Shown here piece by piece: positions 2,981-51,800 of a stretch of DNA of 64,000 nt. Every line of letters starts with the position of its first letter. Position 1 is the stretch's first letter. Under the pieces are notes generated by a model. That model was given only the letters and a program-made list of their open reading frames with translations, had not been told where the DNA came from and did no database searches. The translations under genes and the position numbers were made by a program. The stretch comes from Candidatus Sericytochromatia bacterium (GTDB lineage: Bacteria > Cyanobacteriota > Sericytochromatia > S15B-MN24 > VGJW01), in NCBI GenBank assembly GCA_035285865.1, contig JAYKHS010000014.1:32001-96000 (forward strand), given 5' to 3'.

Positions 2981-3619
2981 GTGTTCGGCTTCCTGACGGG
3001 TGCATCCGGCGGGCAGGACCTGCTGGAACGCCTGACGCTGCAACTGCCGCTGTTCATCGTGTCGATCACCCTGCACGAAGCGGCCCATGCGTGGGCTGCC
3101 TGGCGGATGGGGGATGACACGGCCGCGCGCATGGGCCGCCTGACCCTGAATCCGCTGGCTCATCTCGATCCGATTGGCACGCTGATGCTGCTCTTCGCAC
3201 CCGTGGGCTGGGCGCGTCCGGTTCCCGTCGACGAGGGTCGCCTGCGGCGCTGGGGTTCCAGCCTCGTGTCCGCCGCGGGACCGGCCAGCAACCTCCTGCT
3301 CGCATTTCTCGCCCTGCTTGCCCTGAAGCATCTCGAGATGCCCACGCCCGGGACGGCCGAGGCGATGGGCGAGATGCTGAAGGTGCTGGTGCTGCTCAAC
3401 GTGAACCTCGCTGTCTTCAATCTGCTGCCCATCCCCCCTTTCGATGGTGCCGGCATGCTGCTGGGCCTCCTGCCCGAGCGTGCACGGCCGGCCATGCACC
3501 AGCTGGTGCCCTACGGCGTGGTGATTCTGGTCCTGCTGATCTTCCTGCCTCAGGGACAGGCTTTCCTCGGGGACGTGATGCGGACGGCGCTGGCCTGGCT
3601 GCTTCGGGTGACGCCCTGA
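2981..3619 (+). CDS. Site-2 protease (peptidase M50)
   Basis: HEAAH zinc motif, GRLTLNPLAHLD, AAGPASN, FNLLPIPPFDG. Confidence 0.92.
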   Translation: MFGFLTGASGGQDLLERLTLQLPLFIVSITLHEAAHAWAAWRMGDDTAARMGRLTLNPLAHLDPIGTLMLLFAPVGWARPVPVDEGRLRRWGSSLVSAAGPASNLLLAFLALLALKHLEMPTPGTAEAMGEMLKVLVLLNVNLAVFNLLPIPPFDGAGMLLGLLPERARPAMHQLVPYGVVILVLLIFLPQGQAFLGDVMRTALAWLLRVTP

Positions 3620-5081: not shown

Positions 5082-6591
5082 GGCGTTGGCGAAGTCCGGC
5101 GTGAAGCGCGTGCTCGGCCTCGGGATCGCGCTCTGCGCCCTGTTCTGGATCGTGCCGGATGCGGCTTCTGCAGCCCCACCGGCACAGCCTGCGGCGCGGG
5201 ATCTGGCGTTGGTGGCGTGGGTCGCCGAAGCCGATCGCCTCGCCGGCCCGGGCAACAAGCCCGTGGCGGGCTTCTCGTTCCGCAAGGTTCCGATCCTGCT
5301 CGTGGATCCGGGCCGCATGGCGTTGGCATTCCATGTTCGGACTTCTCTTCCGGGGTTCAGGCCGATCGGATCAGGCGCCTTGACCGTCCAATGGCGGGCA
5401 GGAGCCACGACTGACCTGGACTCGGGCAGTCTGGAGGTCCGCCTTGCCGGGATCCGCATGGTGGCCGCGCCTTACGATCTGCTGCCCGGCTTCTTCCCGA
5501 CGGGGCCTTCGCCGACGGCCCTGCTGGTTCTTGGCCTGAACCATCATGTTCTTGCCAAGGCGACGTGGGCCCGTGACTTGCGGGCTCGGGTCGGTTCGGC
5601 CCAGGCGCAGGCCCGGGGACTCGCCCGCGAACTGGATGCTCTGGGCTTGGCCCTCGTGACTCGGGATGCCGCAGCACAGAAGGCGGCCCTGCTGGGCTTC
5701 CTTTCGGCCCGTCGCAGTCGGCGTGCGGGCTTGTCGGTGGGTGACGCGCAGGCAGAGGATCATCGGGAGGCCCTGCGGGCACTGATTCGCCACTGGCCTA
5801 TGGTGCGCCAGGCGTCGGCCGCAGGTCCTCGTGCATCGGACGTGCCTGCGGCTCTGCCTTGGAGACACGCCTCGGCAGCCGAGCAACTGGCGTGGTTGCG
5901 TAGCCGTTGTATTCAGGCCATGGGCGGGCGCGAGGTGGACGGAGACCCCCTGCTCGTGACTGCATTGGCGCAGGCAGCGATGCTCGACCGTTTCGCGGGA
6001 GAAGGATGGCAGGAACGTGTCCTGCGTAGCGGCTCGATGACGACGGTTCTTGCTCGTGCCCTTGGCTTCGAAGACGGACTACAGGGCATTCCCGTCGATC
6101 GCTTCCGGACTGCCGAACCGACCGTGCCTGAGGTCGGCCCCGATCGTTCGGAGCGCCTGTCCGCCTTCGAGATGCAACCGGGCATCGCCATCGCGCTGCA
6201 GCTGCCGGCACCGGCCCGTGGCCACGACGCCCGCGGGGGGCTGACGTGGGCTCCTGCGCAGCGTGCTCCCTACCGCCTCGATCCGCGTACGGTGCTGCTC
6301 GAGGGCCTTATGTCGCTCAGTTTCGAGGGCAGCGATCGGTCGCTGGACGTGTCGCGATTGCCCGTGCTGGGTGTCGCCGGGGAGCGGTCCTGGCCGTTCG
6401 GCCGCCTCGTGTTTCGTGCTGACCCGCGCAACCTTCAGATCCTGGTCGATGGCCGCCGCATCCGGCGCGCCCCGGGCCTCTGGCGCGTGCACCGCAGACT
6501 CGAGTTGCTGCATCCTCAGTTCCGCTACGTCACGCATCGCGGTCAGTTGCGTATCGACGAGGAGCAGATCGAGGTCGCGGACGTGCGGTGA
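5071..6591 (+). CDS. Hypothetical exported protein
   Basis: 506-aa ORF with signal-like N-terminus, overlapping the upstream stop; no family recognised. Confidence 0.6.
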   Translation: MVDRALAKSGVKRVLGLGIALCALFWIVPDAASAAPPAQPAARDLALVAWVAEADRLAGPGNKPVAGFSFRKVPILLVDPGRMALAFHVRTSLPGFRPIGSGALTVQWRAGATTDLDSGSLEVRLAGIRMVAAPYDLLPGFFPTGPSPTALLVLGLNHHVLAKATWARDLRARVGSAQAQARGLARELDALGLALVTRDAAAQKAALLGFLSARRSRRAGLSVGDAQAEDHREALRALIRHWPMVRQASAAGPRASDVPAALPWRHASAAEQLAWLRSRCIQAMGGREVDGDPLLVTALAQAAMLDRFAGEGWQERVLRSGSMTTVLARALGFEDGLQGIPVDRFRTAEPTVPEVGPDRSERLSAFEMQPGIAIALQLPAPARGHDARGGLTWAPAQRAPYRLDPRTVLLEGLMSLSFEGSDRSLDVSRLPVLGVAGERSWPFGRLVFRADPRNLQILVDGRRIRRAPGLWRVHRRLELLHPQFRYVTHRGQLRIDEEQIEVADVR

Positions 6592-38871: not shown

Positions 38872-39825
38872 ATGGACGCGCAACAACTGGTGACGGCTGT
38901 CCCTGGCTGCGGACCGTCCCGACCCGTGGGCATGCTCCGGGTCGAGGGCACGGAGGCCGCCGCGTTCCTCAATGGCTACACGACCCAGGAGGTCGCCACG
39001 CTGGTCCCCGGCGAGGTCCGGCTGGGCGCCATCACCGACTGGAAGGGCCAGGTGACGGATGTCGTGACCTTCGCGGGCCTGACGGATGCGGTGCTGGTCT
39101 CGGGCAGTCCAGGTCGTGCAGCAGAAGTCCACAAGGGCCTGCGGCGCTACCTGCTGGGCGTCGATGTCCGGCTCATGCCCGTGAGCGGTTGGCTGGCCCT
39201 CGAGTTGGACCCTGGGGCACGCCCGATGCCCGCGGTTCTCGAGGATACCGGGGCCATTGCCGCCGTACTCGGTCTCTCGGGGGTGCCGGGAGTCCGGGCG
39301 GTGCTGCTCGGTGCGGTCACGCCCTCCGCAGGCCCCGCTGCGCGGTTGCTCGTCCCCGAGGGTGATCTCCCTGCCTGGGGTGAGGCGATTCGGGCCGCCG
39401 GGTGGTCGTCGCGAGACCAGGAAACCTTCGACCGCCAGCGGATCCGATCGGGCTGGCCGGAGCCGGACCGGGATCTGCCGGCGGCCTGCAATCCCTGGGA
39501 GGCGCGGCTCGCACCCTTCGTCCGCATGGACAAGGGCTGCTATCTGGGCCAGGAAGTCGTGGCCCGCCTGATCAACTACAAGCGCGTCCAGCGCTGGTTG
39601 ATGGGCACCCGGTCCACGGCGGCCGTCCCCGAGGGCACGCCCCTCCTTTCCGGTGAGGAAACGGTCGGTCGCATGGGCTCGTCCGTCCCGGATGCGGCGG
39701 GCCAATGGGTGGGCCTTGCCCTCGTCGGGGCTGCCTTGGCGGTGCCCGGCGCTGTCGTCCGGACAGCCGAGGGGCAGGAACTGACGCTTGAGGAGCGGCC
39801 CCTGTGGGCCGGGATCACGGATTGA
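38872..39825 (+). CDS. ygfZ: Folate-binding protein YgfZ (GcvT-like)
   Basis: Signature KGCYLGQEVVAR. Confidence 0.9.
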   Translation: MDAQQLVTAVPGCGPSRPVGMLRVEGTEAAAFLNGYTTQEVATLVPGEVRLGAITDWKGQVTDVVTFAGLTDAVLVSGSPGRAAEVHKGLRRYLLGVDVRLMPVSGWLALELDPGARPMPAVLEDTGAIAAVLGLSGVPGVRAVLLGAVTPSAGPAARLLVPEGDLPAWGEAIRAAGWSSRDQETFDRQRIRSGWPEPDRDLPAACNPWEARLAPFVRMDKGCYLGQEVVARLINYKRVQRWLMGTRSTAAVPEGTPLLSGEETVGRMGSSVPDAAGQWVGLALVGAALAVPGAVVRTAEGQELTLEERPLWAGITD

Positions 39826-40477
39826 GGCGTGATCGCAGCCAACGGATGCCGAGGATGCCGGCCAGAAGGGTAAGCTGACGCCAGTCCGCCCGGGCCGCGA
39901 CATGCGGCGAACGGGCCCGGGAGGAGGGGCCGGCATGTTGTCCTGCGGTCCCGGAGGCCACGGTCCACGACACCGCCACCGCCGGCATGCCCTTGAAGCA
40001 ACCGGTGTCGCCCGAGGCCGGATCGTGGACGAGGGCAAACTGCCAGGGTTGGCGGAAGTGGTGCGCGTGCGTGTGCTGATCCGTGCCCGAAAGGAAGACG
40101 CCAAGGCCGGGATGCGTGTGGTACCAGCCGACCACGGCAAGCTCCGGAGCTTCCCTCGCCATCCGCGCCAGCAGGGCGTCCCACGTTTGCGGGGTGAAGG
40201 CAAGATGCACGCCGGAGCCCAGGGTGTCGGGAGCCTCGAAGGCCGTGGTGGCCTCGATCAGCGTGTCGGTGGCGTCATGGTGGACCTTGCCGAGCAGCAG
40301 GCCGCCCACCTCGCAGGAAGGTGACGCGGCCCCATGCCGTTCGATCAGGGCCAGGCAGGAAGCGTGCAGCACCACCGACGCGGATGAGGCTGACGGCCCC
40401 AGCGCACGCCGCCGCCCGGCCGGGTCTGTCGCGGCCTCGACCCACGGATCGGGCGTGGTCTCGCGCCACTCGATCAC
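39815..40477 (-). CDS. JAB/MPN (Mov34) metallopeptidase with C-terminal hydrophobic tail
   Basis: EVGGLLLG...VVGWYHTHPGLGVFLSGTD (E-xn-HxH-x7-S-x2-D); tail LTLLAGILGIRWL. Confidence 0.9.
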   Translation of the reverse strand: MIEWRETTPDPWVEAATDPAGRRRALGPSASSASVVLHASCLALIERHGAASPSCEVGGLLLGKVHHDATDTLIEATTAFEAPDTLGSGVHLAFTPQTWDALLARMAREAPELAVVGWYHTHPGLGVFLSGTDQHTHAHHFRQPWQFALVHDPASGDTGCFKGMPAVAVSWTVASGTAGQHAGPSSRARSPHVAARADWRQLTLLAGILGIRWLRSRLNP

Positions 40478-40481
40478 GGCG

Positions 40482-40997
40482 TCAGACGTCCCGCCATTCG
40501 AGGCGCGGCTTTGCGACCTCGGTGGCTTCTGCCGGTCCGGGCCGATCGGCCAGCGGAAACAGGTCCGGATGGGCTTCGTACCAGTCCGCGGCCTCGCCGT
40601 TCGCTGCGCTGTCGAAGTCGAAGAGCTGCGGATCGCAACGCAGGATGTCGATCAGCCGCATCACGAGGTCGCCCAGGGTCTCCCCGACCATCCAGCGCGA
40701 TCCCAAGCAGAACGTGCCGTTGGCGAAGACATGGGGATGGAAGACCGGCGACAAGGCCCGGACGATCGGTGCCTCGAGCGGATAGGCCGAGGTCAGTCGG
40801 ATCTCGATGCGGTGCTGTTCGCGGCGGACCGGGGTTTCGCCATCCAGCTTCTCGATGGCGGGCATCGTCAGGCGGATGAGGTGCCTGTCAGGCGGGGTGC
40901 CTTGCGATTGCAGGACCTCGACCACCGTCGGCAGTGTTTTCGCCACGGCGGCCAGCGCCCGGGCATCGGCATCGAGGCGACGTCGGCGGGCCTCCAT
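40482..40997 (-). CDS. Ubiquitin-conjugating enzyme E2-like protein
   Basis: RRRRL.AD N-terminus; AYPLEAP..., VFHPHVFANGTFCLG..W, L.DLV, SAANGEAA (UBC fold, catalytic Cys). Confidence 0.88.
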   Translation of the reverse strand: MEARRRRLDADARALAAVAKTLPTVVEVLQSQGTPPDRHLIRLTMPAIEKLDGETPVRREQHRIEIRLTSAYPLEAPIVRALSPVFHPHVFANGTFCLGSRWMVGETLGDLVMRLIDILRCDPQLFDFDSAANGEAADWYEAHPDLFPLADRPGPAEATEVAKPRLEWRDV

Positions 40998-40998
40998 C

Positions 40999-41259
40999 TC
41001 AGGCCCCGGCCTCCAGCAGCGGCACCACTTCGAGCAGGTCTCCGCTCTGGACGCCGCAGGGCCCGAGCGCACCTTGCGCGGGCAACTGTCGGCCAAGGCG
41101 GACGCAACGCAGCATGAAGTCGGTGTCGCGCGGCAGGCGCCAGTTCTGACGGCTGGCCTCGATCAGCTCCTCGACCGTGTAGTCGATGGGCAGCCGGACT
41201 TCGGCCTGCCGCGACTTGTCGAGGGTCCGAATGGTCACGGCAATCACGTCGTCGTCCAC
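40999..41259 (-). CDS. Ubiquitin-like (beta-grasp, EsaB/YukD-like) protein
   Basis: GTG start with AGGAGG RBS; IAVTIRT...V.LP.D.TVEELI...L...GVQSGDLLEVVPLLEAGA, 86 aa, penultimate Gly. Confidence 0.8.
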   Translation of the reverse strand: MDDDVIAVTIRTLDKSRQAEVRLPIDYTVEELIEASRQNWRLPRDTDFMLRCVRLGRQLPAQGALGPCGVQSGDLLEVVPLLEAGA

Positions 41260-41263
41260 GGAT

Positions 41264-42406
41264 TCATTCCTCCTGAATCCATGATGCCCCACAGGCGACC
41301 CACTGCGTCGTCAGATCCGCGATGCCGATCACGTGACCGGCAACCAGGCCCCACTCCGCAAGAGTGCGGTCCCGGTTCGGGGTCGTACCGTCGATGGCCT
41401 CGAGGGTCGTGACCCAGCGCTCCTCGTGGCATCCCGGGCAGGCTGCATCCCGTCGGGAAACCCGCGCCACCGGAGCCAGCACGGCCTCTTCGGTGGCACA
41501 TGTCCTGCACTCTAGGCTCACGGCCACCGCGAAGGGCAGCAGGATGCGCCGGTCCGCGTGACCGGCCAGCAGGTCCGTCGGCCGGATGGCCTCGGGTGCC
41601 GGTCCCTGCGCGAGGTCCGGCAGGCATCCGTGCTCGGGGCAGGACTCGGTTTCGGGCAGCAGGTCCTCGAGAAGGACGGGCGGATGGAGTTGTAGGGTCC
41701 GGCGCGTGCCCGCCGCCATCGGGGTCCATGTCGGAAACGCGAGGGCCAGGACCTGGTCCACCAGCATGGCTCCGGCCAGGGAGGCCGTCACGGCAGTGGT
41801 GGGCACGGCCGTTCCCGAGGATTCGCGCAGCAGACCGGCACAACTGCGGGACGCCTGCAGGCGGCGTTGCATGCCGGGGGTCATGCCGCAGGCGTAGCAG
41901 GCACCTGTCGTCCCGTCCCCGTAGCGGCTGACCTGGCACGCCTCGGCAGACAGCCCTCCGTCCAGATAGGGCACGCCCGCCCGCAGGCAGAGGCGGTTCA
42001 GGGCAAGGCGCGCTCCGACGGAGTCGAGGCAGCCGATGACTGCGTCGGCCTTTCGGACCGTCGCGATGCCGAGGTCTGTCCCCACGTCCCCGATCACCGC
42101 CTCCACATGCAGGCCGGGAGACAGTTCGCGCAGGCGTTCGGCCGCGACGAGGGCCTTTGGGCGGCCGAGATCGTCCGTGCGGAAAAGCACCGAGCGCACC
42201 AGGTTGCTGGCCTCGATGCGATCGCGGTCGAGGACGAGCACCTGCCCCACCCCGACCAGGGCCAGACCCTTCAGAACCTCGTTGCCGAGCGCTCCCGCAC
42301 CCGCCACGATGATCCGGGTCCGGGCCAGTCGCTCCGTGTCCCAGCCGGAAATCAGGCGATGGCGGGCGTGTCGGTCCCGCTCCGGCAGGGGGAAGGCGTC
42401 GCTCAC
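41264..42406 (-). CDS. E1-like ThiF/UBA adenylating enzyme with C-terminal zinc-finger extension
   Basis: RHARH..W, GAGALGNE, DRDRIEASNLVRS, GRPKA, GCLDS..AR, CYAC, RSC (putative catalytic Cys), CRTC/CPGC. Confidence 0.9.
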   Translation of the reverse strand: MSDAFPLPERDRHARHRLISGWDTERLARTRIIVAGAGALGNEVLKGLALVGVGQVLVLDRDRIEASNLVRSVLFRTDDLGRPKALVAAERLRELSPGLHVEAVIGDVGTDLGIATVRKADAVIGCLDSVGARLALNRLCLRAGVPYLDGGLSAEACQVSRYGDGTTGACYACGMTPGMQRRLQASRSCAGLLRESSGTAVPTTAVTASLAGAMLVDQVLALAFPTWTPMAAGTRRTLQLHPPVLLEDLLPETESCPEHGCLPDLAQGPAPEAIRPTDLLAGHADRRILLPFAVAVSLECRTCATEEAVLAPVARVSRRDAACPGCHEERWVTTLEAIDGTTPNRDRTLAEWGLVAGHVIGIADLTTQWVACGASWIQEE

Positions 42407-43068
42407 GCGTCACCCGCTCCGTTCAGCGTGATCTGCTCGGGCGACTTGGGCAGGATCTCGAGCCCGTATGCGGGATGATCCCGCAGCAGTCCGCGGACCC
42501 GGACGTACCGGCCGACCCAGTCCTCGAACCGGTGTCCGGCCTGCTCCCAGCGCTCGAGGTCTCCGCTGAACACGACCAGTTTGAAACCGTCGAAGGGATT
42601 TCTGCTGGCGTGGAACTTGATGAAGTGGGTGCCGGTGGCCCGCGAGACCTGATGACCCAGCACCCGCCCCTCGAAGACCACGACGGTGTTGGCATGGCCC
42701 TCGAGGTCCGAGAGGCCCAGCACGCGCTCGGCCTGCCGATCCCCCGCGACGAGTGCCACCTGCCCGGGTTGGCCCAGTACCTGCCAGGACATGCCCGAGG
42801 TCTGCCGGCAGTTGACGCAGGCACCCGCATTGTGGGTCTGGAGGAAGGTCCACGAACTGGGGTGGTAGCCGGTCTGGCAGTGGGTGCACAGGACGATGCG
42901 GGCCCCGGGGACAAGCGGTGTCCCGTCGAGGGGATCGTGTGCCGTGCCGCCGGATTGCCCGAAGCTCACGGGCCGCGCGGGCTCGGGTCCTTCCTCGCCG
43001 GGTTCCGGCGGGGCACCGTTGTCCCGCCATTCGAGCGGGCGTCGCCCCCTAGAGGGTGGGGACGTCAT
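42403..43068 (-). CDS. RING-like zinc finger + OB-fold protein (candidate E3/sensor)
   Basis: DPLD-x-CTHC-x4-H..SW-x-CVNC followed by VVFEGRV...HFIKF...FKLVVF...VGRYVRVRG. Confidence 0.65.
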   Translation of the reverse strand: MTSPPSRGRRPLEWRDNGAPPEPGEEGPEPARPVSFGQSGGTAHDPLDGTPLVPGARIVLCTHCQTGYHPSSWTFLQTHNAGACVNCRQTSGMSWQVLGQPGQVALVAGDRQAERVLGLSDLEGHANTVVVFEGRVLGHQVSRATGTHFIKFHASRNPFDGFKLVVFSGDLERWEQAGHRFEDWVGRYVRVRGLLRDHPAYGLEILPKSPEQITLNGAGDA

Positions 43069-43540
43069 GTCGCCAGCCTTCGCGCCAGTCGGGCAGGTTC
43101 GGGCGACCGTCGACCGTCAGCGCGATCCCGGTGTCCCCCAGCAACTCGACGGTGATCGGTTGGTCCTGCTCCTTGCCCTGGAGCAGGTCGGCACGGACCC
43201 AGAAGGCACTGCCCCCCAGTTGCAGGGAGACCCAGCCTTCGAGCGTATCGCTTCCGCCAAGCTTCCCCATGACGCAGCGCACCTTGCCGCGGCCCAGATC
43301 TCCCTGAATGACGGAACGGCGCGCTTCGATGCGGCGCCAGGCCCACCAGGAGGGGATCAGGGCAAGCACCCCGGGGAAGAGCCATCCGGGCTCGCGTGAC
43401 CAGGCGGCCGCGCAAGCAGGCAGCAAGGTCGGCAACCACGCCGCACGGCCGGCCCACCGGAGCCAGGTCATTCGTTGGCGCAGGTGGCGCCGCTCCTCGT
43501 TCGTCAGGCTGCGCTGCGAGGTGAGGAATGCCGCCTTCAC
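43049..43540 (-). CDS. Hypothetical two-TM membrane protein
   Basis: GTG overlapping the upstream stop; two Trp-rich hydrophobic segments then a small beta domain. Confidence 0.55.
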   Translation of the reverse strand: MKAAFLTSQRSLTNEERRHLRQRMTWLRWAGRAAWLPTLLPACAAAWSREPGWLFPGVLALIPSWWAWRRIEARRSVIQGDLGRGKVRCVMGKLGGSDTLEGWVSLQLGGSAFWVRADLLQGKEQDQPITVELLGDTGIALTVDGRPNLPDWREGWRHDVPTL

Positions 43541-44220
43541 GGCAACAGGCCCTCGGCACGGCACGCTTCGATGAAGCGCGTGGCACGGCCCGGATCAGGG
43601 AACGCCATGCGTCGGGTCAGGGCAGGCTCTGCGCTCTGGCCGGACTCGACCATGCCACAGCGCCTGTAGAAGAGGTCCGAGCCCGATTTCAGCAACGCGT
43701 CCAGCACCAGGGCTGCCTCGAGGCGCGAGGCCTCGTAGAGGGAGGCGACAAGCAGGAGCTTGCCGATGCCCTTCAGCGGCGAACCCGGCAGGCGCTCGAG
43801 GTATCGGACCTCGAGCACGGGCACCGGGCCACTGCGGTCCATCCCGACGGCGACTCCACCCACGATGCGCCGGGCCGTACCGCCGGGGTCGAGCAACTCG
43901 ACGACCATCAGGCTCGAGGCCTTGCCGAAATCCACGTGGCCCTTGACGTCGCGTCCCGACGCGCGGCCGAGGGCCAGCCCGACCCAGTCGAACCAGGTGG
44001 GCTCCGGCCAACGTGCGAAGACCTGCGCGTCCTCCGGTCGGCCCCTGCGGATGACCACAGGTACGGGCACACCGTCCGGGCCTGTCAGCGCGGCCATCTC
44101 GATCAGCCCCGCAGGGCGTGCCTGGCCGATCAGCGATCCGGTCGACGTGCGTTCGCCGGGACGCCCCGGTCCCTTGGCCTTCCGGGACTTCCGGCGCTTG
44201 AAGAGCCTGGAGAGCCACAT
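43537..44220 (-). CDS. GNAT-like acetyltransferase
   Basis: LEVRYLE, KGIGKLLL (motif A-like), LVLDAL, FYRRCGM. Confidence 0.55.
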   Translation of the reverse strand: MWLSRLFKRRKSRKAKGPGRPGERTSTGSLIGQARPAGLIEMAALTGPDGVPVPVVIRRGRPEDAQVFARWPEPTWFDWVGLALGRASGRDVKGHVDFGKASSLMVVELLDPGGTARRIVGGVAVGMDRSGPVPVLEVRYLERLPGSPLKGIGKLLLVASLYEASRLEAALVLDALLKSGSDLFYRRCGMVESGQSAEPALTRRMAFPDPGRATRFIEACRAEGLLP

Positions 44221-44313: not shown

Positions 44314-44907
44314 ATGCTTCTGGCCGCTACCCTGGCGTCTGCCATGCAGATGCCCTTCTTGACCGACCTGCTCGAGGGCTTCAGTCCCGCGCCGGATCCG
44401 GACGGAGAGGGCATCGTCGTGCGCATCCGTGACACGGAGCGGGATTCCATGAAGATCGTCCAGGGCCAGATCAACGCACCGGTCCCCCCTGCGGTGCTCT
44501 GGAGCGTCATCACCGACTACGAGGCCTATCCGCGAATCTTCGACCGATATCGGAAGATGGAGATCCTCGAGAAATCGGGGAGCTGGGAACTGCATCGGTC
44601 CGAGGTCGATTATCCGATCTTCGGTTCGCGCTGGGTCTCCAACGTGCTCCAGCACGATCGGCCCGGCTTGAAGATCCGCTTCCAGCGCGCCGAGGGCACC
44701 ATCAAGCAGGTCGAGGGCGTCTGGACCTTGAAGGAGACGGCCCCGGGACGTTCGATGATGCGTTACGCGGTGCGTTTGGACCCGGGCCTGCCTTTCGTCC
44801 CGAGCTGGGTCGTCACTTGGGGGACCCAGACGATGATGCCCTCCATCCTGCGTTCGGTGGCCAACGAGGCCGTCAAGCGCCACCGCGCGACCGCCAAGGC
44901 CAGCTGA
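44314..44907 (+). CDS. SRPBCC/polyketide-cyclase family protein
   Basis: I.APVP..VLWSVITDYE.YP..F, EG.IKQVEG.W.L; RBS aaggag. Confidence 0.8.
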   Translation: MLLAATLASAMQMPFLTDLLEGFSPAPDPDGEGIVVRIRDTERDSMKIVQGQINAPVPPAVLWSVITDYEAYPRIFDRYRKMEILEKSGSWELHRSEVDYPIFGSRWVSNVLQHDRPGLKIRFQRAEGTIKQVEGVWTLKETAPGRSMMRYAVRLDPGLPFVPSWVVTWGTQTMMPSILRSVANEAVKRHRATAKAS

Positions 44908-45691
44908 GTCGGATCCAGCGGGCCAGCGACCGACCGCCGCCGCCGCCGTGGCGGATGCGCAGGTCGTGCAGCCGGTTGACCGAAGGCAGCGCGGGGCGGC
45001 CCTTGCCATCAAGGAAAGCCGCATCCAGCGCGTCGGCCTGCCAGCGGCAGGCATAGGCTTCGATGTCCTTGCGCCAGGCGTCGCGCACGGCGTAAGAGCC
45101 GTAGGTCCTGCACAGCAGGGGGCGGACGGGGTGGATGCTGCAGCGGTCGTCCTCGAGGAACGGGCACGACAGGTTCAGTGCTCCGGGCCGCAGATGCAGG
45201 TTCCACGGCAGCCGCATCACGCGTTCCGCCAACCACAAGGCAAGTCCATGGGGGCCGTGAGTCCTCCGGTATCGTGCAGCGAAGCGGTGCCGTGCCGCGT
45301 CGTCCCAGTTGGCCTCGACCCAGTCGCGGATGGCCTCCCACTCCCGGGGCAACACGAGGAAGTAGGCGGTCGGGTACGTGCAGCAGCCACTGCAGCCCTC
45401 CCGGCAGCGACTTTCGGGGTAGGCCGCGGCCACCCCCGCCGAAATCCTGTCGGCTAGCCGGTAGAGCGCTTGCAAGGCACGGGAGGGACGCCAGCCAGGT
45501 GCCTCGAGCGCATTCATCTCCAGCCGCGCCTCTCCCAAGGCACGGGCCAGCGGAGCGAATTCGGGCCTTCCTCCCAGCATCGGCAGCGGCAGGTAGGTGG
45601 CCGGAGGGGCCTTGGCACGCTCGCGAACGAGTATCTCCCCGAAGGACGCGTCGCTGTCGGAGTTCTGCGGGAATTCGAAGTCGGAATTCAT
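44873..45691 (-). CDS. YkgJ family Zn/Fe-chelating cysteine-cluster protein
   Basis: CREGCSGCC...CPFLEDDRCSIHPVRPLLCRTY. Confidence 0.85.
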   Translation of the reverse strand: MNSDFEFPQNSDSDASFGEILVRERAKAPPATYLPLPMLGGRPEFAPLARALGEARLEMNALEAPGWRPSRALQALYRLADRISAGVAAAYPESRCREGCSGCCTYPTAYFLVLPREWEAIRDWVEANWDDAARHRFAARYRRTHGPHGLALWLAERVMRLPWNLHLRPGALNLSCPFLEDDRCSIHPVRPLLCRTYGSYAVRDAWRKDIEAYACRWQADALDAAFLDGKGRPALPSVNRLHDLRIRHGGGGGRSLARWIRLSWPWRSRGGA

Positions 45692-45735
45692 CTGGTCTTT
45701 ACCGGATTCGGTCAGGGTTGGCCGATGACCATGGC

Positions 45736-47721
45736 ATGGTCCGTTCTGCCTCGCCCGCGAGGCCATGGTACGCCCCCGCCCGCGCCGGTGGGCTCGTGGC
45801 CATGTTCGCGCTGTCGGCCTGCACCCGCGGGGTGCCGGGCACGGTGCCTGCCGCGTGGCCTGCTGCGGCGCGGGTCGCGCCCCTCGCGCAGGGTGAGCGG
45901 GAACTGGTCCTCGAGCTGGTCGCGTCCTTGCCGCAGGCCGAACCCGAGGCCGTGCGCGCGCTGGGCGGCACGGCTGCGGGCCGTGAGGTTCTGGTCCAGT
46001 TCGCGGACGGACGCCTGCACGACCTTCCCGGAGCCGTCCGGGTGGCTCCGAGCCTTGTGCCGGGGCTGGGGCGCTATCGCCTCTCCGCGGCTCTGGATGC
46101 CGCCACGATGCAACGGTGGGGAGCGTCCGCGCCGCTGGCCTATGCAGAGCCGGTGCATCGCCTTTCCATCACCGGAAGCCGTGTGCAGGCTGCCGCGCAG
46201 CGCGTCGGGCCCAACGATCCCGGTCTGAATACCGCCTGGGGCTATGCCCGGGTGGGCGGAGGCGAGCTCTGGGCGCGTGGCGTACGGCCACAGAGTCCGG
46301 TGATCGTCGCCGTGGTCGACACCGGCGTGGATGCCGCGCATGAGGATCTCAAGGGTGTGGTGCTGGCGGGGCGGAACCTGGTCCAGCCCGGGCAGGCGCC
46401 TTACGACAAGCATGGCCATGGCACGCACTGCGCCGGAGTCATTGCCGCGCTGGCCGACAACGGCAAGGGAATCGCCGGTGTGGCCGCGGGTGTCCGCATC
46501 ATGCCGATCAAGGCTCTCGGGGATGACGGGTCCGGCGAGGACCCGGTGCTGGTCGATGCAATCGAGGCCGCCGTCAGCGGCGGTGCCAAGGTCATCAGCA
46601 TGTCTCTGGGTACCGACCAGGACCTGATCTCGGTCCGTCGCGCGATTCAGTCGGCGGTTGCCAAGGGCGTGGTCATCGTGTCTTCGTCCGGCAACCAGGG
46701 AGCCGAGCAGGCGCTCTACCCGGCCCGCTACCCGGAAGTCATCGCCGTAGGCGCCACCGACCTCGACGACATGCGGGCCACCTTCTCGAACGACGATCGC
46801 AACGTCCGTCTCACGGCACCGGGTGTCGTCATCCGCTCCACGGTCCCCGGGGGGTACGACTACATGTCGGGTACCAGCATGGCGGCTCCACACGTCTCGG
46901 CGGCCTTTGCCTTCATGGCGAGCCTCCGTCCCGACATGAGTCCGTCCGCCGTGATGGACCTGCTGGTCAGGACAGGGGCTCGGGTTTCGGGGTTCTCGCA
47001 CAAGGCCGTGGGTCTGGATCTGCTGCGTGCGGCCCATGAAGCCGGCCTGCCCGTCGGCGCCCTGCCGACTCCGGATCCGAATGCTCCGACGCCCGGACCC
47101 GATCCGGATCCCGGACCCGATCTGCCTCCCGGCGATGATCCCGCGACGCCTCCACCCGGGTCCGGCGGTAGCGTGCCCATGCCCGACTGGGGTGACGTCG
47201 CCCTGCCCGGCTTCGGCGGGGGTGGTTCGGGCCCGGCACCCGGCCCCTCGGCCGCTCCGGTCCCGGGCGTGGGAGCCCCCGGCTTCGACTGGGTTCCGCT
47301 GCCGTCCTTCGGTGGCAACCCCACATCCGGCGCTTCCGATCGCCAGGCCACTGTGCCGGCGGCAGAGGCGCTCTCGGACCTCGACCGGGGCCGTGCGGCT
47401 CTGCTCGACGTCTTCGCCTCCCGCACGGATCTGGAGGCCTTCGATGCCGAAGCGGCGCGCCTCGCACGGGTCGGGGCGCTGGCACCGGGCTCCACTCAGA
47501 AGGCCGTCATCCGCGATCTGCAGAAGGCCCTCCGCCTGCAAGGGGCGGCCGTGCGCGAGTCCGGCAGTTTCGACGAGGCGACGGCAGCTGCAGTCGTCGC
47601 CTGGAAGCGGCAGCACGGGCTCCATGAGCCGTTCCGGGATGCCCGGGGCGAATGGGCCGTTCGGCCGAGCGTGGACCTGGACCTCTTCGGCCGCATCGTC
47701 CTGGCGTCCGTAGGCAATTAG
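45736..47721 (+). CDS. S8 subtilisin-like serine protease lipoprotein with Pro-rich linker and C-terminal peptidoglycan-binding-like domain
   Basis: Lipobox LSAC; VAVVDTG, HGHGTHCAG, SSGN, SGTSMAAPHV; C-terminal IRDLQKAL...GSFDEATAAAV. Confidence 0.9.
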   Translation: MVRSASPARPWYAPARAGGLVAMFALSACTRGVPGTVPAAWPAAARVAPLAQGERELVLELVASLPQAEPEAVRALGGTAAGREVLVQFADGRLHDLPGAVRVAPSLVPGLGRYRLSAALDAATMQRWGASAPLAYAEPVHRLSITGSRVQAAAQRVGPNDPGLNTAWGYARVGGGELWARGVRPQSPVIVAVVDTGVDAAHEDLKGVVLAGRNLVQPGQAPYDKHGHGTHCAGVIAALADNGKGIAGVAAGVRIMPIKALGDDGSGEDPVLVDAIEAAVSGGAKVISMSLGTDQDLISVRRAIQSAVAKGVVIVSSSGNQGAEQALYPARYPEVIAVGATDLDDMRATFSNDDRNVRLTAPGVVIRSTVPGGYDYMSGTSMAAPHVSAAFAFMASLRPDMSPSAVMDLLVRTGARVSGFSHKAVGLDLLRAAHEAGLPVGALPTPDPNAPTPGPDPDPGPDLPPGDDPATPPPGSGGSVPMPDWGDVALPGFGGGGSGPAPGPSAAPVPGVGAPGFDWVPLPSFGGNPTSGASDRQATVPAAEALSDLDRGRAALLDVFASRTDLEAFDAEAARLARVGALAPGSTQKAVIRDLQKALRLQGAAVRESGSFDEATAAAVVAWKRQHGLHEPFRDARGEWAVRPSVDLDLFGRIVLASVGN

Positions 47722-47730
47722 TCGGAGGCG

Positions 47731-48042
47731 ATGGTGGCGCCCCGTCGGCTCGACTTTCTTCTGGAGCTAGCCCCGGGCGGAGATGCGCGCGCCCCCGGCG
47801 GAGCCGTCACGTGCGCGCTCTGTGGCCACTGGGATCACCCGCCCCCTTGCCGCTGGCCCCATGAGACCCGGACGGAGGTCCGCGAGTCAGGTCTCGCGGT
47901 CACGGTCACGGTGACGTGCCCGGATGCCGAGTGGCCCGAGGTCGCGGAACGCGTCCGCTCCGCACTTGTCAGGGGCGAGCAGGCGGGTCCCGACGGCCGT
48001 ATGTCCTGCTGGGCCGTGGTTGCGGAGTCCTCGGAACAATAG
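47731..48042 (+). CDS. Hypothetical protein
   Basis: RBS ggagg; APGGAVT.ALCGHWDHPPPC..PH motif. Confidence 0.55.
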   Translation: MVAPRRLDFLLELAPGGDARAPGGAVTCALCGHWDHPPPCRWPHETRTEVRESGLAVTVTVTCPDAEWPEVAERVRSALVRGEQAGPDGRMSCWAVVAESSEQ

Positions 48043-48140
48043 ATCTGCAAGTGCCGCGTGCCCGAGATCAAGTGGCAACTCAGGGCGCTGTAGTCCAGCA
48101 ACCTTGGTCACGTCACCAGTGCCTTGATGATTGCATGGCT

Positions 48141-48641
48141 CTATCGTCGGTCCAGTTTCTCAAAGCGGTGGCGTTGCCAAGGCTTGAATTTCAAATGCTC
48201 TTCGTCCAGCCTTCTGTTCACTGAATTCAGTGCGTCATTGATGTAATTTTCAAGCTCAGAGAATTTTTTTTGCGAAATTATTTTCTGTGTTGGGGAAAGG
48301 TTGTCGAACTTCTTATAATAAGGATTCGCTAGCTCGTAAAATCTGATACCATACCAAGATCTTTTGAGCTTTACTGCGTTAAAGGTCTCAAAGGTGCTCG
48401 GATATTGAGCCAGGAGGTCTTCTACTTGTGGCTTCAGTTCGCTTATGGCGTTATCGAAGATTGTCTTGCTGCTTCTTGTTCTAGGTGAACGATTTGCTTG
48501 AGTTGCCACGGGCGGGTCTACAAAGGTTGTGGTCTTTGCTGCCTCGCACCCTTTCGGCCCTACATTCAAGGCGATTGCAAGCAACACGCACTTCGTGACA
48601 TCATTCCCAAGCGCGTTCTTCATGTAGTCAAGAATCCCCAC
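48141..48641 (-). CDS. Hypothetical low-GC orphan protein
   Basis: 166-aa ORF in a visibly AT-rich segment; Lys/Asn-rich, possible signal-like N-terminus. Confidence 0.55.
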   Translation of the reverse strand: MGILDYMKNALGNDVTKCVLLAIALNVGPKGCEAAKTTTFVDPPVATQANRSPRTRSSKTIFDNAISELKPQVEDLLAQYPSTFETFNAVKLKRSWYGIRFYELANPYYKKFDNLSPTQKIISQKKFSELENYINDALNSVNRRLDEEHLKFKPWQRHRFEKLDRR

Positions 48642-48851
48642 TTCAGTTCAAGGATAGGTCGAATTGCTGCATTTGAGCAATTTGATCATTCGATGATCAT
48701 GGAAGACCATTGGTGGGTCTGTGATGGCGAAAGGCAGGCCGGACTCGTCTCGAGGTACTTGATCGGTTGCTCACCTGCTCGGATCGATGGGCCGCGCGCC
48801 GTGTAGGATCATCCCCATCCCTCGACAGGAAGGCATGCCGGCTAGCCTCTG

Positions 48852-51800
48852 ATGCACCCCTACCTCGCCGCTCTGGAACAGCGCGTGCTCGTCTTCGACG
48901 GTGGCATGGGCACGATGTTGCAACCCTTGGAGCTGACGCCCGACGACTACCAGGGGTTGGCCGGCTGCCCCGAGATCCTCGTGGCAAGCCGTCCGGACGT
49001 CATCCGGCAGGTGCACCGCGCCTACCTCGAGGCCGGTGCGGATGTCGTGGAGACCAACACCTTCGGAGGCAACCGCCTGAAGCTGGCCGAGTGGGGACTC
49101 GGGGAACGGGTGCACGAGATCAACGTGGCCGCGGCCCGTCTTGCGCGCGAGATGGCCGATGCATTCGCGGCGCCGGACAGACCGCGCTTCGTGGCGGGTT
49201 CGATCGGTCCTACCGGCATGCTGCCCTCGTCCGGGGATCCGGTCCTGGGTGCGATAGGCTTCGAGGCGCTGGCCGACATCTTCCGGGAGCAGGCGCTGGC
49301 GCTGATGGACGGGGGATGCGATCTGTTGCTGGTCGAGACCGCTCAGGACATCCTCGAGGTTCGCGCGGCCATCGCGGGCATCCGCAGGGCCTTCGCCGCG
49401 GCGGGGCGTACCTTGCCGCTGCAGGTCCAGGTCACCCTCGACACGACGGGCCGGATGCTGCTGGGCACGGACATCGGTGCCGCCCTCGCGATCATCGGGG
49501 CCTTGCCCGTCGATGTGGTGGGCCTGAACTGTGCCACCGGGCCGGACGCGATGCGGGAGCCGGTGGCCCTGCTGGCCGAGCGCTCCACGCGGCCGGTCAG
49601 CATCCTGCCCAATGCCGGCCTGCCCCTCAATGTCGACGGCAAGGCCGTCTATCCGCTGGAACCCGAGCCGATGGCGCACATCCTCGCCGAGTACGTCTCG
49701 CGCTACGGTGTGCGAGTGGTCGGCGGCTGCTGCGGCACGACTCCGGCGCATATCCGGGCCTTGGTCGCGGCGGTGGCGCACTTGCCGCCGCAGCCGCGAC
49801 CGGGGTCCAGTCCGGCCCACGTGGCCAGCGCCATGCGCGCCGTGGCCCTTGATCAGGAGCCCGCCCCCCTGCTGGTCGGGGAGCGCCTGAACGCCCAGGG
49901 CAGCCGCAAGGTCAAGCAGTTGCTGCTGGACGGGGATGATGACGGGCTGGTGCAGGTCGCCCGACAGCAGGTGGCTGCGGGGGCTCATGTGCTGGACGTC
50001 TGCGTCGCCCTGACCGAGCGTGCGGACGAGGCCCAGACGATGGCGCGCGTGGTGGGTGCCTTGTCTCGAGGCGTCGAGGCGCCCCTGATGATCGATTCGA
50101 CCGAGCCCGCGGTCCTGCGGGAAGCGCTGCGTGCGTGCCCCGGTCGGGCCATCGTCAACTCGGTCCACCTCGAGAACGGCCGGACCCGGATCGACACTGT
50201 CCTGCCGGACGTGCTCGAGCATGGTGCCGCCGTCGTCGCCCTGACGATCGACGAGGAGGGCATGGCCCGCTCTGCGGATCGCAAGCTGGCCGTGGCGGCG
50301 CGCATCCATGACCTTTGCGTGGCCGGGCATGGCCTTGCCTCCGATGCCCTCATCGTGGATACGCTGACCTTCACGTTGGCGACGGGGGACCCCGAGTATG
50401 CCCGGTCCGCGCTCGAGACGATCGACGGCATTCGTCGGGTCAAGGAGGCCTTGCCGGGCGTCCGGACCATCCTCGGTGTCTCGAACGTGTCCTTCGGGCT
50501 GGGGGCAGAGGCCCGCAAGGTCGTCAACGCAGTCTTTCTGCATCATGCCGTGCGGGCCGGCCTGGACATGGCCATCGTCCATCCCGATCACGTGTTGCCG
50601 CTCCACGAGATGCCTGACGAGGCCCGGGAACTGGCCGAGGACCTCGTGCTGGCGCGCCGGGAAGATGCCCTGCCTCGTCTGATTGCCTGGTTCGATCGGG
50701 CGGAAGGTGTGCCCGTGGCCGGCAACGCGAGGGCCTCCGGGAGCGACGCGGGCACCGCCGAGGAGCGTATCCACCGGCAGATCGTCGAACGGCGACGCGA
50801 GGGCATCGAGACCCTGCTCGACGAGGTCCTCGCGCGTCGCAGCGCCGTGTCGGTCCTGAACGAGGTGCTGCTGCCCGCGATGAAGGAAGTGGGGGATCGC
50901 TTCGGTGCCGGCGAGCTGATCCTGCCGTTCGTCCTGCAGTCGGCCGAGGTCATGAAGCGTGCCGTGGCCCATGTGGAGCCGCATCTGGATCGCGTCGACG
51001 GGGTCACGAAGGGGACGGTGGTGCTGGCGACCGTCTTCGGGGATGTCCACGACATCGGCAAGAACCTCGTCCACGTGATTCTGGCCAACAACGGCTACAC
51101 GGTGCACGACCTGGGCAAGCAAGTGCCCGTGCAGACGATCCTGGATCGGGCCCGCGAGCTGGGAGCCGATGCGATCGGCCTCTCCGCCCTGCTGGTCTCG
51201 ACCTCGAAGCAGATGCCGATCTGCGTCGAGGAAGCCCACCGACAGGGCCTGCACCTGCCCATCCTGATCGGGGGCGCCGCCATCAATCCGTCCTTCGGTC
51301 GGCGGGTCGCCCTGCTGCCGGACGGGCAGCCCTATCCCGCGGGGGTCTACTATGCCCGGGATGCCTTCGAGGGCCTGTCGCTGCTGGATCGCCTGACGGA
51401 CCCCGAGCGCCGCGAGGCCTTGGTCGGCGAGGTCCGGGAGGCGGCGCTTGCCGCGGCGGAACGGCCAGAGCGTCCATCTGCGCCGGTCGTCCGGGTCGGC
51501 AGGTCCGCAGTGCCGGTCCAGGATGTGCTGCCGGAGCCGCCGTTCTGGGGAGCCCGCGCCTTGGACGACGTGCCCTTGGATGATCTCTTCGATCTGCTGG
51601 ATCGCGACAGCCTGTTCCGGCTTTCCTGGGGCGGTCGCGGCACCAAGGGCGAAGCATGGGATCGGTTGGTGGAGGACACGTTCGTGCCGCGGCTCCGGCG
51701 CTTCCGGGCAGAGTTGCGATCGGCGTCCTGGGTCCGTCCTCGTGCGGTTTTCGGCTTCTATGCCTGTGTGGCCGAAGGGGATGCCATCGTGGTCTATCCC

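Follow-up and report, generated by a model that had tools for sequence, protein, structure and literature searches.

A predicted ubiquitin-like conjugation cascade with a RING-OB candidate ligase, resident in a family of Sericytochromatia-like bacteria

The gene cluster

The stretch of DNA analysed here (hereafter the window) comprises 64,000 nucleotides (nt) of contig JAYKHS010000014.1 from a Candidatus Sericytochromatia bacterium. It carries a compact cluster of genes that we read as a predicted conjugation cascade for a ubiquitin-like protein (Ubl). Seven open reading frames (ORFs), all in one direction on the minus strand, span positions 39815-44220 of the 64-kb window. In the direction of transcription they encode a GNAT-fold protein, a small protein, a protein that joins a RING/U-box-type domain to an OB fold (RING-OB), an activating enzyme (E1), the Ubl, a conjugating enzyme (E2) and a JAB metallopeptidase.

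The genes are closely spaced. The TGA of the GNAT gene overlaps the GTG start of the small-protein gene within a GTGA at 43540-43537, the small-protein gene (stop at 43049) and the ATG of the RING-OB gene (43068) share 20 nt (43049-43068), and a second GTGA at 42406-42403 joins the RING-OB TGA to the E1 GTG. The E1 stop (41266-41264) is followed, after a gap of 4 nt, by a GTG at 41259; because this codon lies nine bases past an AGGAGGA at 41274-41268, we took it as the Ubl start in preference to an alternative GTG at 41292. A single nt separates the Ubl stop (41001-40999) from the E2 ATG (40997), and 4 nt separate the E2 stop (40484-40482) from the JAB GTG (40477). A preliminary description of this DNA had reported seven co-oriented, tightly packed genes with both GTGA overlaps, and the ORF coordinates, together with a reading of the reverse complement, agree with it. 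The cluster has a guanine-plus-cytosine (GC) fraction of 0.69-0.71, its flanks one of 0.65-0.73, and Rfam and tRNA scans of the window returned no match.

To place the cluster in context, 61 genomes were searched (G000 included); the genome of the window itself is a 2.8-Mb assembly, 82.7% complete. Eight loci were compared with the window by tblastn, and the individual loci named below include L015 (genome G004), L016 (G007), L017 (G005), L018 (G006) and L019 (G013). Because relatives carry the same genes in the same order, the cluster goes beyond a chance arrangement.

The core enzymes

The E1 (380 amino acids (aa), 41264..42406, minus strand) consists of a ThiF-type adenylation domain and a C-terminal zinc-ribbon domain. 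It matches Pfam ThiF at 150.1 bits (cut-off 28.1), and its best sequence matches in the PDB are UBA7, UBA1, UBA3, UBA6 and SAE2 (E 2e-25 to 1e-20), with ThiF (3e-18) and MoeB (6e-16) both ranking behind these UBA-type enzymes. An alignment of nine E1 sequences keeps GxGxxG, D60/D62, SNLxR71, K84, D128 and S188-C189 constant, and the site C170xxC173 ... C256..H259 and, in the C-terminal domain, C300xxC303 and C323xxC326 are likewise constant (9/9). The S188-C189 pair lies sixteen residues past the first CxxC, in the crossover loop; from its position and invariance, Cys189 is the candidate thioester site.

The E2 (171 aa, 40482..40997, minus strand) is a canonical UBC protein with H87-P88-H89 and catalytic C97 (HPH-x7-C), and passes Pfam UQ_con at 33.5 bits (cut-off 27). 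UBE2B, UBE2A and Rad6 are the best PDB matches of its profile (E ~1e-14), which retrieves 271 E2 sequences at E <= 0.01. Across 12 E2 sequences H87, P88 and C97 do not vary, and position 89 is either H or N.

The last gene encodes an Rpn11-like JAB/JAMM metallopeptidase (220 aa, 39815..40477, minus strand) that matches Pfam JAB at 43.6 bits (cut-off 22.5) and Prok-JAB at 32.6 bits. Its best PDB matches are PSMD14/Rpn11 (3.8e-12) and the Rpn11-like protein of Caldiarchaeum (6fjv, 1.5e-11), and its JAMM ligands E56, H120, H122, S130 and D133 line up with those of PSMD14; it is predicted to act as both the processing enzyme of the Ubl and a deconjugase. Two JAB homologs (L016:2371-3147 and L017:6570-7319) carry a C-terminal transmembrane (TM) helix with a hydropathy of 2.0-2.2, of which the window protein has a weak counterpart, suggesting that these two relatives are tail-anchored deconjugases.

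The preliminary description had named a ThiF-type E1, a UBC-fold E2 and a JAB peptidase with intact zinc ligands, and all three names stand: each protein passes its Pfam cut-off, and the nearest solved relatives are UBA7/UBA1/UBA3 for the E1 and UBE2A/B-Rad6 for the E2. From the ranking of PDB sequence matches, we place E1, E2, JAB and Ubl provisionally in the eukaryote-like branch of their families, since the closest solved relatives are eukaryotic UBA, UBC and Rpn11 proteins and the Caldiarchaeum Rpn11, and not ThiF/MoeB, Bil, Bub or the CBASS proteins Cap2/3.

One could instead see in the E1 and the Ubl a ThiS/MoaD-like sulfur-carrier pair that serves the synthesis of a cofactor or thionucleoside. 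In its favour, the E1 belongs to the ThiF-family adenylyltransferases and matches ThiF, MoeB and SAMP-E1 models weakly, and its candidate cysteine sits in the crossover loop, as in ThiF, MoeB and UBA5. We nevertheless regard this reading as very improbable. The NCBIfam ThiF/MoeB scores fall far under their cut-offs (TIGR02356 111 against 275; MoeB models 76-90 against 266-449), the E1 is nearer to eukaryotic UBA enzymes than to ThiF/MoeB, and its neighbours in the cluster are a canonical E2, an Rpn11-like JAB and a RING-fold protein. The ORF list and Pfam gave no rhodanese domain and no thiamine or molybdopterin genes in the cluster, and the Ubl ends in Ala-Gly plus a tail rather than in Gly-Gly. 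Nor did the ORF list and Pfam give a CD-NTase among the seven genes or their immediate neighbours, so that neither a CD-NTase nor a ThiS/MoaD context was found, as had been noted before.

The ubiquitin-like modifier

The Ubl (86 aa, 40999..41259, minus strand) ends in ...PLLEAG-A, with Gly85 as the predicted reactive C-terminus and Ala86 as a predicted removable tail. It reaches Pfam YukD at 27.1 bits (cut-off 27), its homologs match the Rad60-SLD and ubiquitin families, and a search of the PDB with its profile finds the Rad60 SUMO-like domain (E 0.0015). These weak matches are consistent with one another and, with the conserved terminal Gly, sustain the stand-alone Ubl that had been proposed.

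The motif P-x-L-E-A-G is constant in eight relatives, in which the tail after the Gly is A, G, RA or 11-12 unrelated residues. Searching metagenomes with the Ubl alignment yielded 43 loci; the Ubl ends exactly at the conserved Gly in 24 of them and with 1-6 further residues in 16, and the remaining three end differently (…THGG/…THGIG). A comparable tail is described for a Bil type II system: E. aridi BilA ends in Gly97-Ala98, and this tail blocks adenylation and is removed by the JAB (Chambers et al., preprint). By this analogy, the JAB of the window should expose Gly85.

With YukD as the best Pfam match of the Ubl and a mycosin-like S8 peptidase nearby, a type VII secretion reading was considered as well. 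We rejected it because the Ubl gene sits between the E1 and E2 genes and its product has a conserved terminal Gly; no search for further secretion components was made. The S8 subtilisin-like peptidase (45178-47721, plus strand), reported as lying about 1 kb from the Ubl, scores 171.7 with the mycosin model against a cut-off of 278.75. Its real start is probably later than listed, because the listed ORF start overlaps the neighbouring CxxCxxCC gene.

A RING-OB protein as candidate E3

The RING-OB protein (221 aa, 42403..43068, minus strand) is the candidate ligase (E3) of the cluster and consists of a disordered N-terminus (residues 1-41), a RING/U-box-fold domain and a C-terminal OB fold. Its AlphaFold2 (AF2) model, built on a 21-sequence alignment, has a predicted local distance difference test (pLDDT) of 78.8 and a predicted template-modelling score (pTM) of 0.76. 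The RING/U-box-fold domain (42784..42948, minus strand) has a single zinc site formed by C61, C64, C84 and C87; H69 is kept, and S72 stands where PHD/RING domains have Cys. Fourteen such sequences were aligned, drawn from Sericytochromatia-like, acidobacterial and betaproteobacterial loci; constant among them are D, CxxC, H, S, L and CxxC.

Modelled alone by AF2, the RING domain reaches a pLDDT of 92.8. Foldseek places U-box/RING domains on top for this model (TMq 0.6-0.74), at E 0.17 or worse and with nothing at E <= 0.001. An exhaustive VIA search over 48,161 chains gave Z 5.5-6.8, which the tool rates as middling (Z < 8), over 48-55 of the 55 residues, with a root-mean-square deviation of 1.4-3.1 A (1.5-2.5 for the top ten). 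Because the Z scores are only middling, we weighed the uniformity of the fold class instead: going by titles, RING/U-box domains of E3 ligases, Rad18 and Bre1 among them, make up the great bulk of the 50 rows, and the others belong to complexes such as the spliceosome, APC/C, SEA, GATOR2 and RQC. At the level of Pfam, the cut-off of Prok-RING_1 (PF14446; 29.1) is missed by the window protein (19.7 bits), by four homologs (16.1-22.8) and by the L028 protein (16.0), and we regard the domain as a probable relative, not a member, of that family. Comparison of the RING profile with PDB sequences gave only insignificant zinc-finger/PHD-like patterns, and the PRDM9 repeats among them were set aside as spurious.

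The OB-fold domain (residues ~110-216, 42421..42741, minus strand) was assigned by Foldseek on the AF2 model. Four PDB matches reach E <= 0.001, all of them asparaginyl-tRNA synthetase chains, by their OB anticodon-binding part; weaker rows include LysRS/AspRS, RPA, Stn1 and CST. Weak matches to OB_YrrC were found for the L017 homolog (14.9 bits) and for P0159 (22.4 bits). The RING/OB label given earlier is accordingly supported in both of its folds, RING/U-box and OB, if one allows for a RING that is degenerate and has a single zinc site.

When the E2 was co-folded with the RING domain, the score was 0.47 against 0.00 for the best control. We count this as weak support. Of 157 solved complexes 116 reach that mark, as do 2 of 215 mismatched pairs, but scores of 0.60 or less came from only 18 of those 157 and from both mismatches. 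Between runs, at least 59% of contacts agree, and the pLDDT of the partner is at least 84. Because E2-RING complexes are among solved structures, the pass may reflect complexes that the model remembers.

Outside the host family, the RING domain is found joined to other partners. In the sister family, genome G013 has a RING fused to HIRAN (L019:7616-8245, plus strand; HIRAN 52.3 bits, cut-off 24.7) directly after E1-Ubl-E2-JAB, and G026:C528:417-1004 matches the RING profile over its full length and is, by profile match alone, an apparent RING-HIRAN protein. At loci from betaproteobacterial and Angelobacter metagenome-assembled genomes (MAGs), the RING belongs to small proteins that have a TM helix at the N-terminus (hydropathy 2.5-2.6) and are encoded next to E1-Ubl-E2-JAB. 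A motif search of the metagenome loci found 24 RING-bearing ORFs, and TPR repeats occur in 5 of the 17 that were scanned with Pfam, seven near-duplicates having been left out.

Searched against 1.84 billion proteins, the RING profile retrieved 491 representatives at E <= 0.001, 87 of them at E <= 1e-10. From the best 150 we scanned 141 with Pfam, after dropping eight fragments (61-93 aa) and one protein already seen. No Pfam family was found in 119; six have TPR, three SH3_3, and one each HIRAN, PG_binding_1 and a sub-threshold OB_YrrC. None of the 141 reaches the Prok-RING_1 cut-off of 29.1, the best being 28.1. The family is thus sizeable yet missed by Pfam at its cut-offs. Because a constant, small, putatively E2-docking fold is joined to changing adaptors (OB, HIRAN, TPR, TM), the RING domain looks modular and E3-like.

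The cascade could also work with the RING-OB protein in another role, as a substrate, a regulator or a nucleic-acid-binding partner, and with the E2, with or without the GNAT protein, transferring the Ubl directly. Such a reading would fit a zinc domain that misses every Pfam RING cut-off and has one of the two RING zinc sites, the weak co-fold (0.47 against 0.00), and the E2 relatives at L034, L036 and L046, for which no E1, Ubl or RING was detected within ~4 kb. We hold it to be quite improbable, given that the RING/U-box fold extends over the whole length of the domain, that RING-OB co-occurs with the E2 in 7/7 family genomes, that a RING lies inside or beside E1-Ubl-E2-JAB clusters in three phyla, and that it is combined with varied adaptors, as E3s are.

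Two further arrangements were seen at individual loci. At L015, a second, RING-only paralog (2696-3034, minus strand, genome G004; 112 aa as called) lies between the RING-OB and E1 genes. At L028, from the Angelobacter MAG, a small DnaJ-domain protein (5178-5573, plus strand; 75.5 bits) is encoded immediately upstream of the E1, and a TM-anchored RING-like protein is encoded on the opposite strand, just downstream of the E1-Ubl-E2-JAB cluster.

Distribution and residency

Among named proteins, the nearest belong to MAGs that carry the label Candidatus Sericytochromatia or Tanganyikabacteria. The E2 is present in 7/7 other genomes of the host family, in 2/10 of the sister family and in 0/43 other relatives, and the RING-OB profile reproduces this distribution, with one marginal match in addition (E 2.3e-4). 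Loci of the genus keep the order GNAT, small protein, RING-OB, E1, Ubl, E2, JAB and are flanked by YgfZ-like, SRPBCC and CxxCxxCC genes; the neighbours of the cluster include housekeeping genes (YgfZ-like, ABC transporter, MetH-like). The neighbourhood is syntenic in the host family, and it is elsewhere that the adaptor changes. The preliminary description had taken the cluster to be long resident, which its presence in all seven family genomes, its conserved flanks and a GC content matching those flanks bear out.

Identity to the window proteins, as measured by tblastn, is highest for the Ubl, at 91-98% within the genus and 66-75% at the level of the family. The corresponding values are 79-90% and 49% for RING-OB, 74-86% and 29-30% for the small protein, 67-73% and 42-49% for the E1, 64-80% and 43-47% for the E2, 67-83% (88% over a 57-aa fragment at L013) and 41-42% for the GNAT protein, and 58-64% and 37-51% for the JAB. 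Because its identity tops that of all other cluster genes at both levels, the Ubl is clearly the most constrained component, as ubiquitin is, and this modifier appears, again like ubiquitin, to evolve slowly relative to its enzymes.

Beyond the host lineage, a diverged E2-like gene (UQ_con 22-24 bits) adjoins a UbiE methyltransferase gene at three MAG loci, L034, L036 and L046 (Actinomycetota, Chloracidobacterium and Blastocatellia). A JAB gene and an RNase D-like gene come next at L034 and L046; at L036 a MauE-like gene stands there, with no JAB match. These loci look like a different, reduced system.

Comparison with known systems

Among described systems, the operon of Caldiarchaeum subterraneum shares most features with the cluster discussed here: compact, overlapping genes encode each of Ubl, E1, canonical E2, Rpn11-like JAB and a small RING-type zinc protein separately. 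In both, the components are nearer to eukaryotic proteins than to ThiF/MoeB and the Ubl has a C-terminal tail that would require processing, and the window JAB has the Caldiarchaeum Rpn11-like protein as one of its best PDB matches. The Ub/E1/E2/small RING finger/Rpn11 operon was described first (Nunoura 2011) and later reconstituted (Hennell James 2017; see also Fuchs 2018). The second half of its RING motif has the spacing of the window protein, C-x2-C-x4-H-x2-(C/S)-x10-11-C-x2-C (Nunoura 2011). The differences are several. The window host is a bacterium, and the gene order is E1-Ubl-E2-JAB, as against Ubl-E2-E1-RING with Rpn11 on the other strand. The window Ubl ends in Ala-Gly where that of Caldiarchaeum ends in Gly-Gly; the window RING is without the first CxxC pair and one more Cys, has a single zinc site and carries an OB fold as fusion partner; and the E1 has no inserted catalytic-cysteine domain. 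Finally, the window adds GNAT-fold, small hydrophobic and CxxCxxCC genes.

Burroughs, Iyer and Aravind are said to have predicted, in 2011, sporadic bacterial Ub/E1/E2/RING/JAB operons, with which Pfam's Prok-RING_1 is reportedly connected. The parts list of the window cluster is the same, TM-RING proteins stand beside E1-Ubl-E2-JAB in the betaproteobacterial and Angelobacter MAGs, and Prok-RING_1 is the best, though sub-threshold, Pfam match of the window RING. The window family differs in having RING-OB or RING-HIRAN in place of TM-RING, and in occupying a fixed locus across a bacterial family without being visibly mobile. A citing paper attributes mobile bacterial operons of the Ub/E1/E2/RING/JAB type to that work (Burroughs et al., 2011). 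Other sources state that some bacteria carry complete operons with distant E2 and E3 homologues (Hennell James 2017) and that Ubl, E1, E2, RING E3 and deubiquitinase (DUB) are encoded together in several families of bacterial operons yet to be characterised (Chambers et al., preprint). The operon class is therefore not new: it was predicted in 2011 and has been reconstituted only from an archaeon.

The bacterial systems that have been studied, CBASS Cap2/3, Bil and Bub, have diverged E2s and no E3 according to two preprints (the Ubl-diversity preprint; Chambers et al.). Bil types I and II resemble the window in having separate Ubl, E2, JAB and E1 genes and a conserved Gly followed by a few non-conserved residues, the Gly97-Ala98 of E. 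aridi BilA corresponding to Gly85-Ala86 here (Chambers et al.). As described there, the Bil order is Ubl-E2-DUB-E1, with no RING component, against E1-Ubl-E2-JAB with a RING gene upstream in the window; the Bil E2 is of the CEHH type without C-terminal helices, whereas the window E2 passes UQ_con and has HPH..C. Bub I/II are characterised by Ubl-E2 or E2-E1 fusions and the DUF6527 serine protease BubE (the Ubl-diversity preprint); the window components are all separate, and Pfam found no DUF6527 in the cluster. CBASS type II (Cap2/Cap3) has an E2-E1 fusion protein beside a CD-NTase and an effector, in contrast to the separate E1 and E2 of the window. The operon types 6a-6e of Iyer 2006, with non-classical or inactive E2s or fusion proteins, are unlike the window cluster.

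PADLOC, queried for a named system, returned generic E1/E2/JAB models only: its E1-E2 models cover the adenylation domain alone at <= 68 bits, and the matches of cluster proteins to BilC (E 1.4e-3) and BilD (E 1.9e-5) are weak. Naming the cluster by PADLOC or NCBIfam was accordingly abandoned, the matches being generic or sub-threshold.

Among eukaryotic systems, Rad6 (UBE2A/B) provides the best PDB matches of the window E2 profile, and the RING-HIRAN combination of the sister family is also the domain pair of Rad5/HLTF. Compared with Rad6-Rad18/Rad5(HLTF), the window has no Snf2 ATPase and carries OB in place of HIRAN, and no sliding-clamp target is implicated. The Rad6/Rad18/Rad5 likeness should be taken as a functional analogy, since the ranking of E2 matches is not a phylogeny.

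Several features of this system appear to be new: a RING with one zinc site has OB or HIRAN as its fusion partner, GNAT and CxxCxxCC proteins are present as accessories, and the cluster is fixed across an entire bacterial family. In the available literature we found no description of the RING-OB variant and no experiment on a RING-containing bacterial operon, with the limit that Burroughs 2011 may list RING-OB or RING-HIRAN proteins. In bacteria, cascades that combine a separate E1 with a canonical E2 and a RING-type E3 are known so far as predictions; the present cluster is a compact set whose parts all look catalytically intact by sequence.

Proposed mechanism and role

From family knowledge and conserved residues, we predict that the cluster encodes a Ubl-conjugation cascade of the eukaryote/Caldiarchaeum type, resident on the chromosome, and consider it reasonably probable that it works. 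The preliminary description had spoken of a eukaryote-style protein-modification cascade; every one of its gene assignments held, and the nearest solved relatives of the core proteins are eukaryotic. In the proposed mechanism, the JAB would first trim Ala86 and expose Gly85 of the Ubl. The E1 would then adenylate Gly85 and carry the Ubl as a thioester on the crossover-loop Cys189, from which the Ubl would move to Cys97 of the UBC-type E2. The RING/U-box domain would dock the E2~Ubl, the OB fold would pick the target or site, and the Ubl would be joined to a target lysine. The JAB would also undo the modification, and the GNAT-fold, small hydrophobic and CxxCxxCC proteins would serve as lineage-specific modulators.

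A search of the genome (82.7% complete) for the proteasome family PF00227 found nothing; as a control, the same search detected the family in 10/14 reference genomes. Because no proteasome-family gene was found, a role as a degradation signal is less likely, and we set this candidate aside as improbable; the tag is more likely a regulatory, non-degradative mark.

Several points weigh against this reading of the cluster. The E1 lacks the inserted catalytic-cysteine domain, and the case for Cys189 goes no further than position and invariance. The beta-grasp fold of the Ubl, weakly indicated, rests on marginal sequence matches. The RING domain stays under every Pfam RING cut-off, has one zinc site and finds its structural neighbours at middling Z. 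As to the target, OB folds bind many ligands, and the link to nucleic acids hangs on one domain swap; the TM-RING proteins elsewhere and the tail-anchored JAB in two relatives suggest a membrane-proximal rather than a DNA-linked role. Members of the E2 family crop up in MAGs of several phyla (Cyanobacteriota, Acidobacteriota, Betaproteobacteria, Verrucomicrobiota and Actinomycetota), a scatter that would be expected of horizontally moved, possibly defensive, cassettes. Lastly, all characterised bacterial E1/E2/JAB systems are tied to phage defence or stress, according to the Ubl-diversity preprint.

These last points lead to a Bil-like anti-phage defence, in which the Ubl would be conjugated to a phage or host protein and block virion assembly or replication, with RING-OB or RING-HIRAN sensing phage nucleic acid or being recruited to it. 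CBASS type II and Bil I/II act in phage defence, and RING-E3 operon families are predicted to do likewise (the Ubl-diversity preprint; Chambers et al.). The patchy occurrence of the E2 family over these MAG groups is in line with such a role, and the variable E3 adaptor (OB, HIRAN, TPR, TM) resembles diversifying defence sensors. We nonetheless think it rather unlikely, though a serious rival to the resident reading. PADLOC (2023 database, cluster ORFs) gave generic E1-E2, E2 and JAB models plus weak BilC/BilD and no named system, the cluster is present in 7/7 family genomes at the same locus within the genus and with housekeeping neighbours, its GC matches the flanks, and no neighbouring defence genes were seen among the ORFs examined. 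For the family-wide occurrence, the shared locus in the genus, the housekeeping neighbours and the missing PADLOC system, we favour a resident cellular role: a stress or regulatory system is more likely than a mobile defence cassette. Fixation in the whole Sericytochromatia-like family argues in the same way for a cellular rather than a selfish or purely defensive role.

For the resident cascade, the swap of OB for HIRAN in the sister family suggests a nucleic-acid-associated target. Carried further, RING-OB and RING-HIRAN might be nucleic-acid-directed Ubl ligases that bring a Rad6-like E2~Ubl to single-stranded DNA or free 3' ends and tag a DNA-bound protein, as a counterpart of Rad6-Rad18/Rad5(HLTF), with GNAT acylation and JAB deconjugation as opposing controls; the site might be stalled forks or DNA entering through the membrane. 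We offer this proposal in its entirety as speculative and unlikely to hold. The cluster as such bears on the pre-eukaryotic role of ubiquitin-like tagging, in a cell where no proteasome was found.

Accessory and neighbouring genes

The first gene of the cluster encodes a GNAT-fold protein (227 aa, 43537..44220, minus strand), a probable acyl-CoA N-acyltransferase and lineage-specific accessory. The window protein has no Pfam or NCBIfam match, and its L017 homolog reaches Acetyltransf_1 at 17.9 bits, under the cut-off of 20.7. The fold proposed earlier is supported by the ESM Atlas, both in features (score 0.94-0.95 to GNAT clusters) and in structure (TM score 0.55-0.60 by query and 0.72-0.76 by target, to RimI-/Pat-type GNATs), and an xxxGxG loop (PLKGIG) is present in the sequence. 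The gene occurs in 6/7 family genomes; the G006 locus has other small ORFs instead.

The small protein (163 aa, 43049..43540, minus strand) combines an N-terminal hydrophobic hairpin with a C-terminal domain to which no fold was assigned. Pfam, NCBIfam and PADLOC gave no match, and the ESM Atlas returned unnamed clusters only. It had been labelled a TM protein, a label that we find plausible but weak: the maximal 19-residue Kyte-Doolittle mean is 0.82 for the window protein and 1.42 for that of L014 (threshold 1.6), whereas the L015 and L018 homologs have two segments each at >= 1.77. The gene is absent from L017 by tblastn.

Outside the seven genes, at 44873..45766 on the minus strand, lies a gene for a CxxCxxCC (PF03692) zinc/iron-chelating-domain protein (28.2 bits, cut-off 23), for which NCBIfam and PDB sequences gave no match. 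Homologs adjoin the cluster in L012, L014, L017 and L018, at differing positions, and in genome G006 JAB and CxxCxxCC are fused in one 417-aa ORF (L018:2219-3472, minus strand). Because of this fusion and of the adjacency in other family loci, we count the gene as probably a component of the functional unit, beyond the extent first given to the cluster. A lysine methylase, which this family may include, was considered as a further reading and dropped.

Divergent from the cluster, and with an uncertain link to it, is a gene for an SRPBCC/START-like protein (44356..44907, plus strand; Pfam Polyketide_cyc, 56.6 bits), which by tblastn lies beside the cluster in L012, L014, L015 and L018. In proteobacteria, a START-domain protein is conservedly paired with the ubiquitin-like RnfH (Iyer 2006); the likeness of the present neighbour to that pairing may be coincidence.

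Further along the window, the GC fraction drops to 0.524 over ~1 kb (48000-48999), in the interval that separates the S8 peptidase gene from a long MetH-like gene. This low-GC kilobase, which contains an ORF of 166 aa (48141-48641, minus strand), looks like a small foreign insertion.

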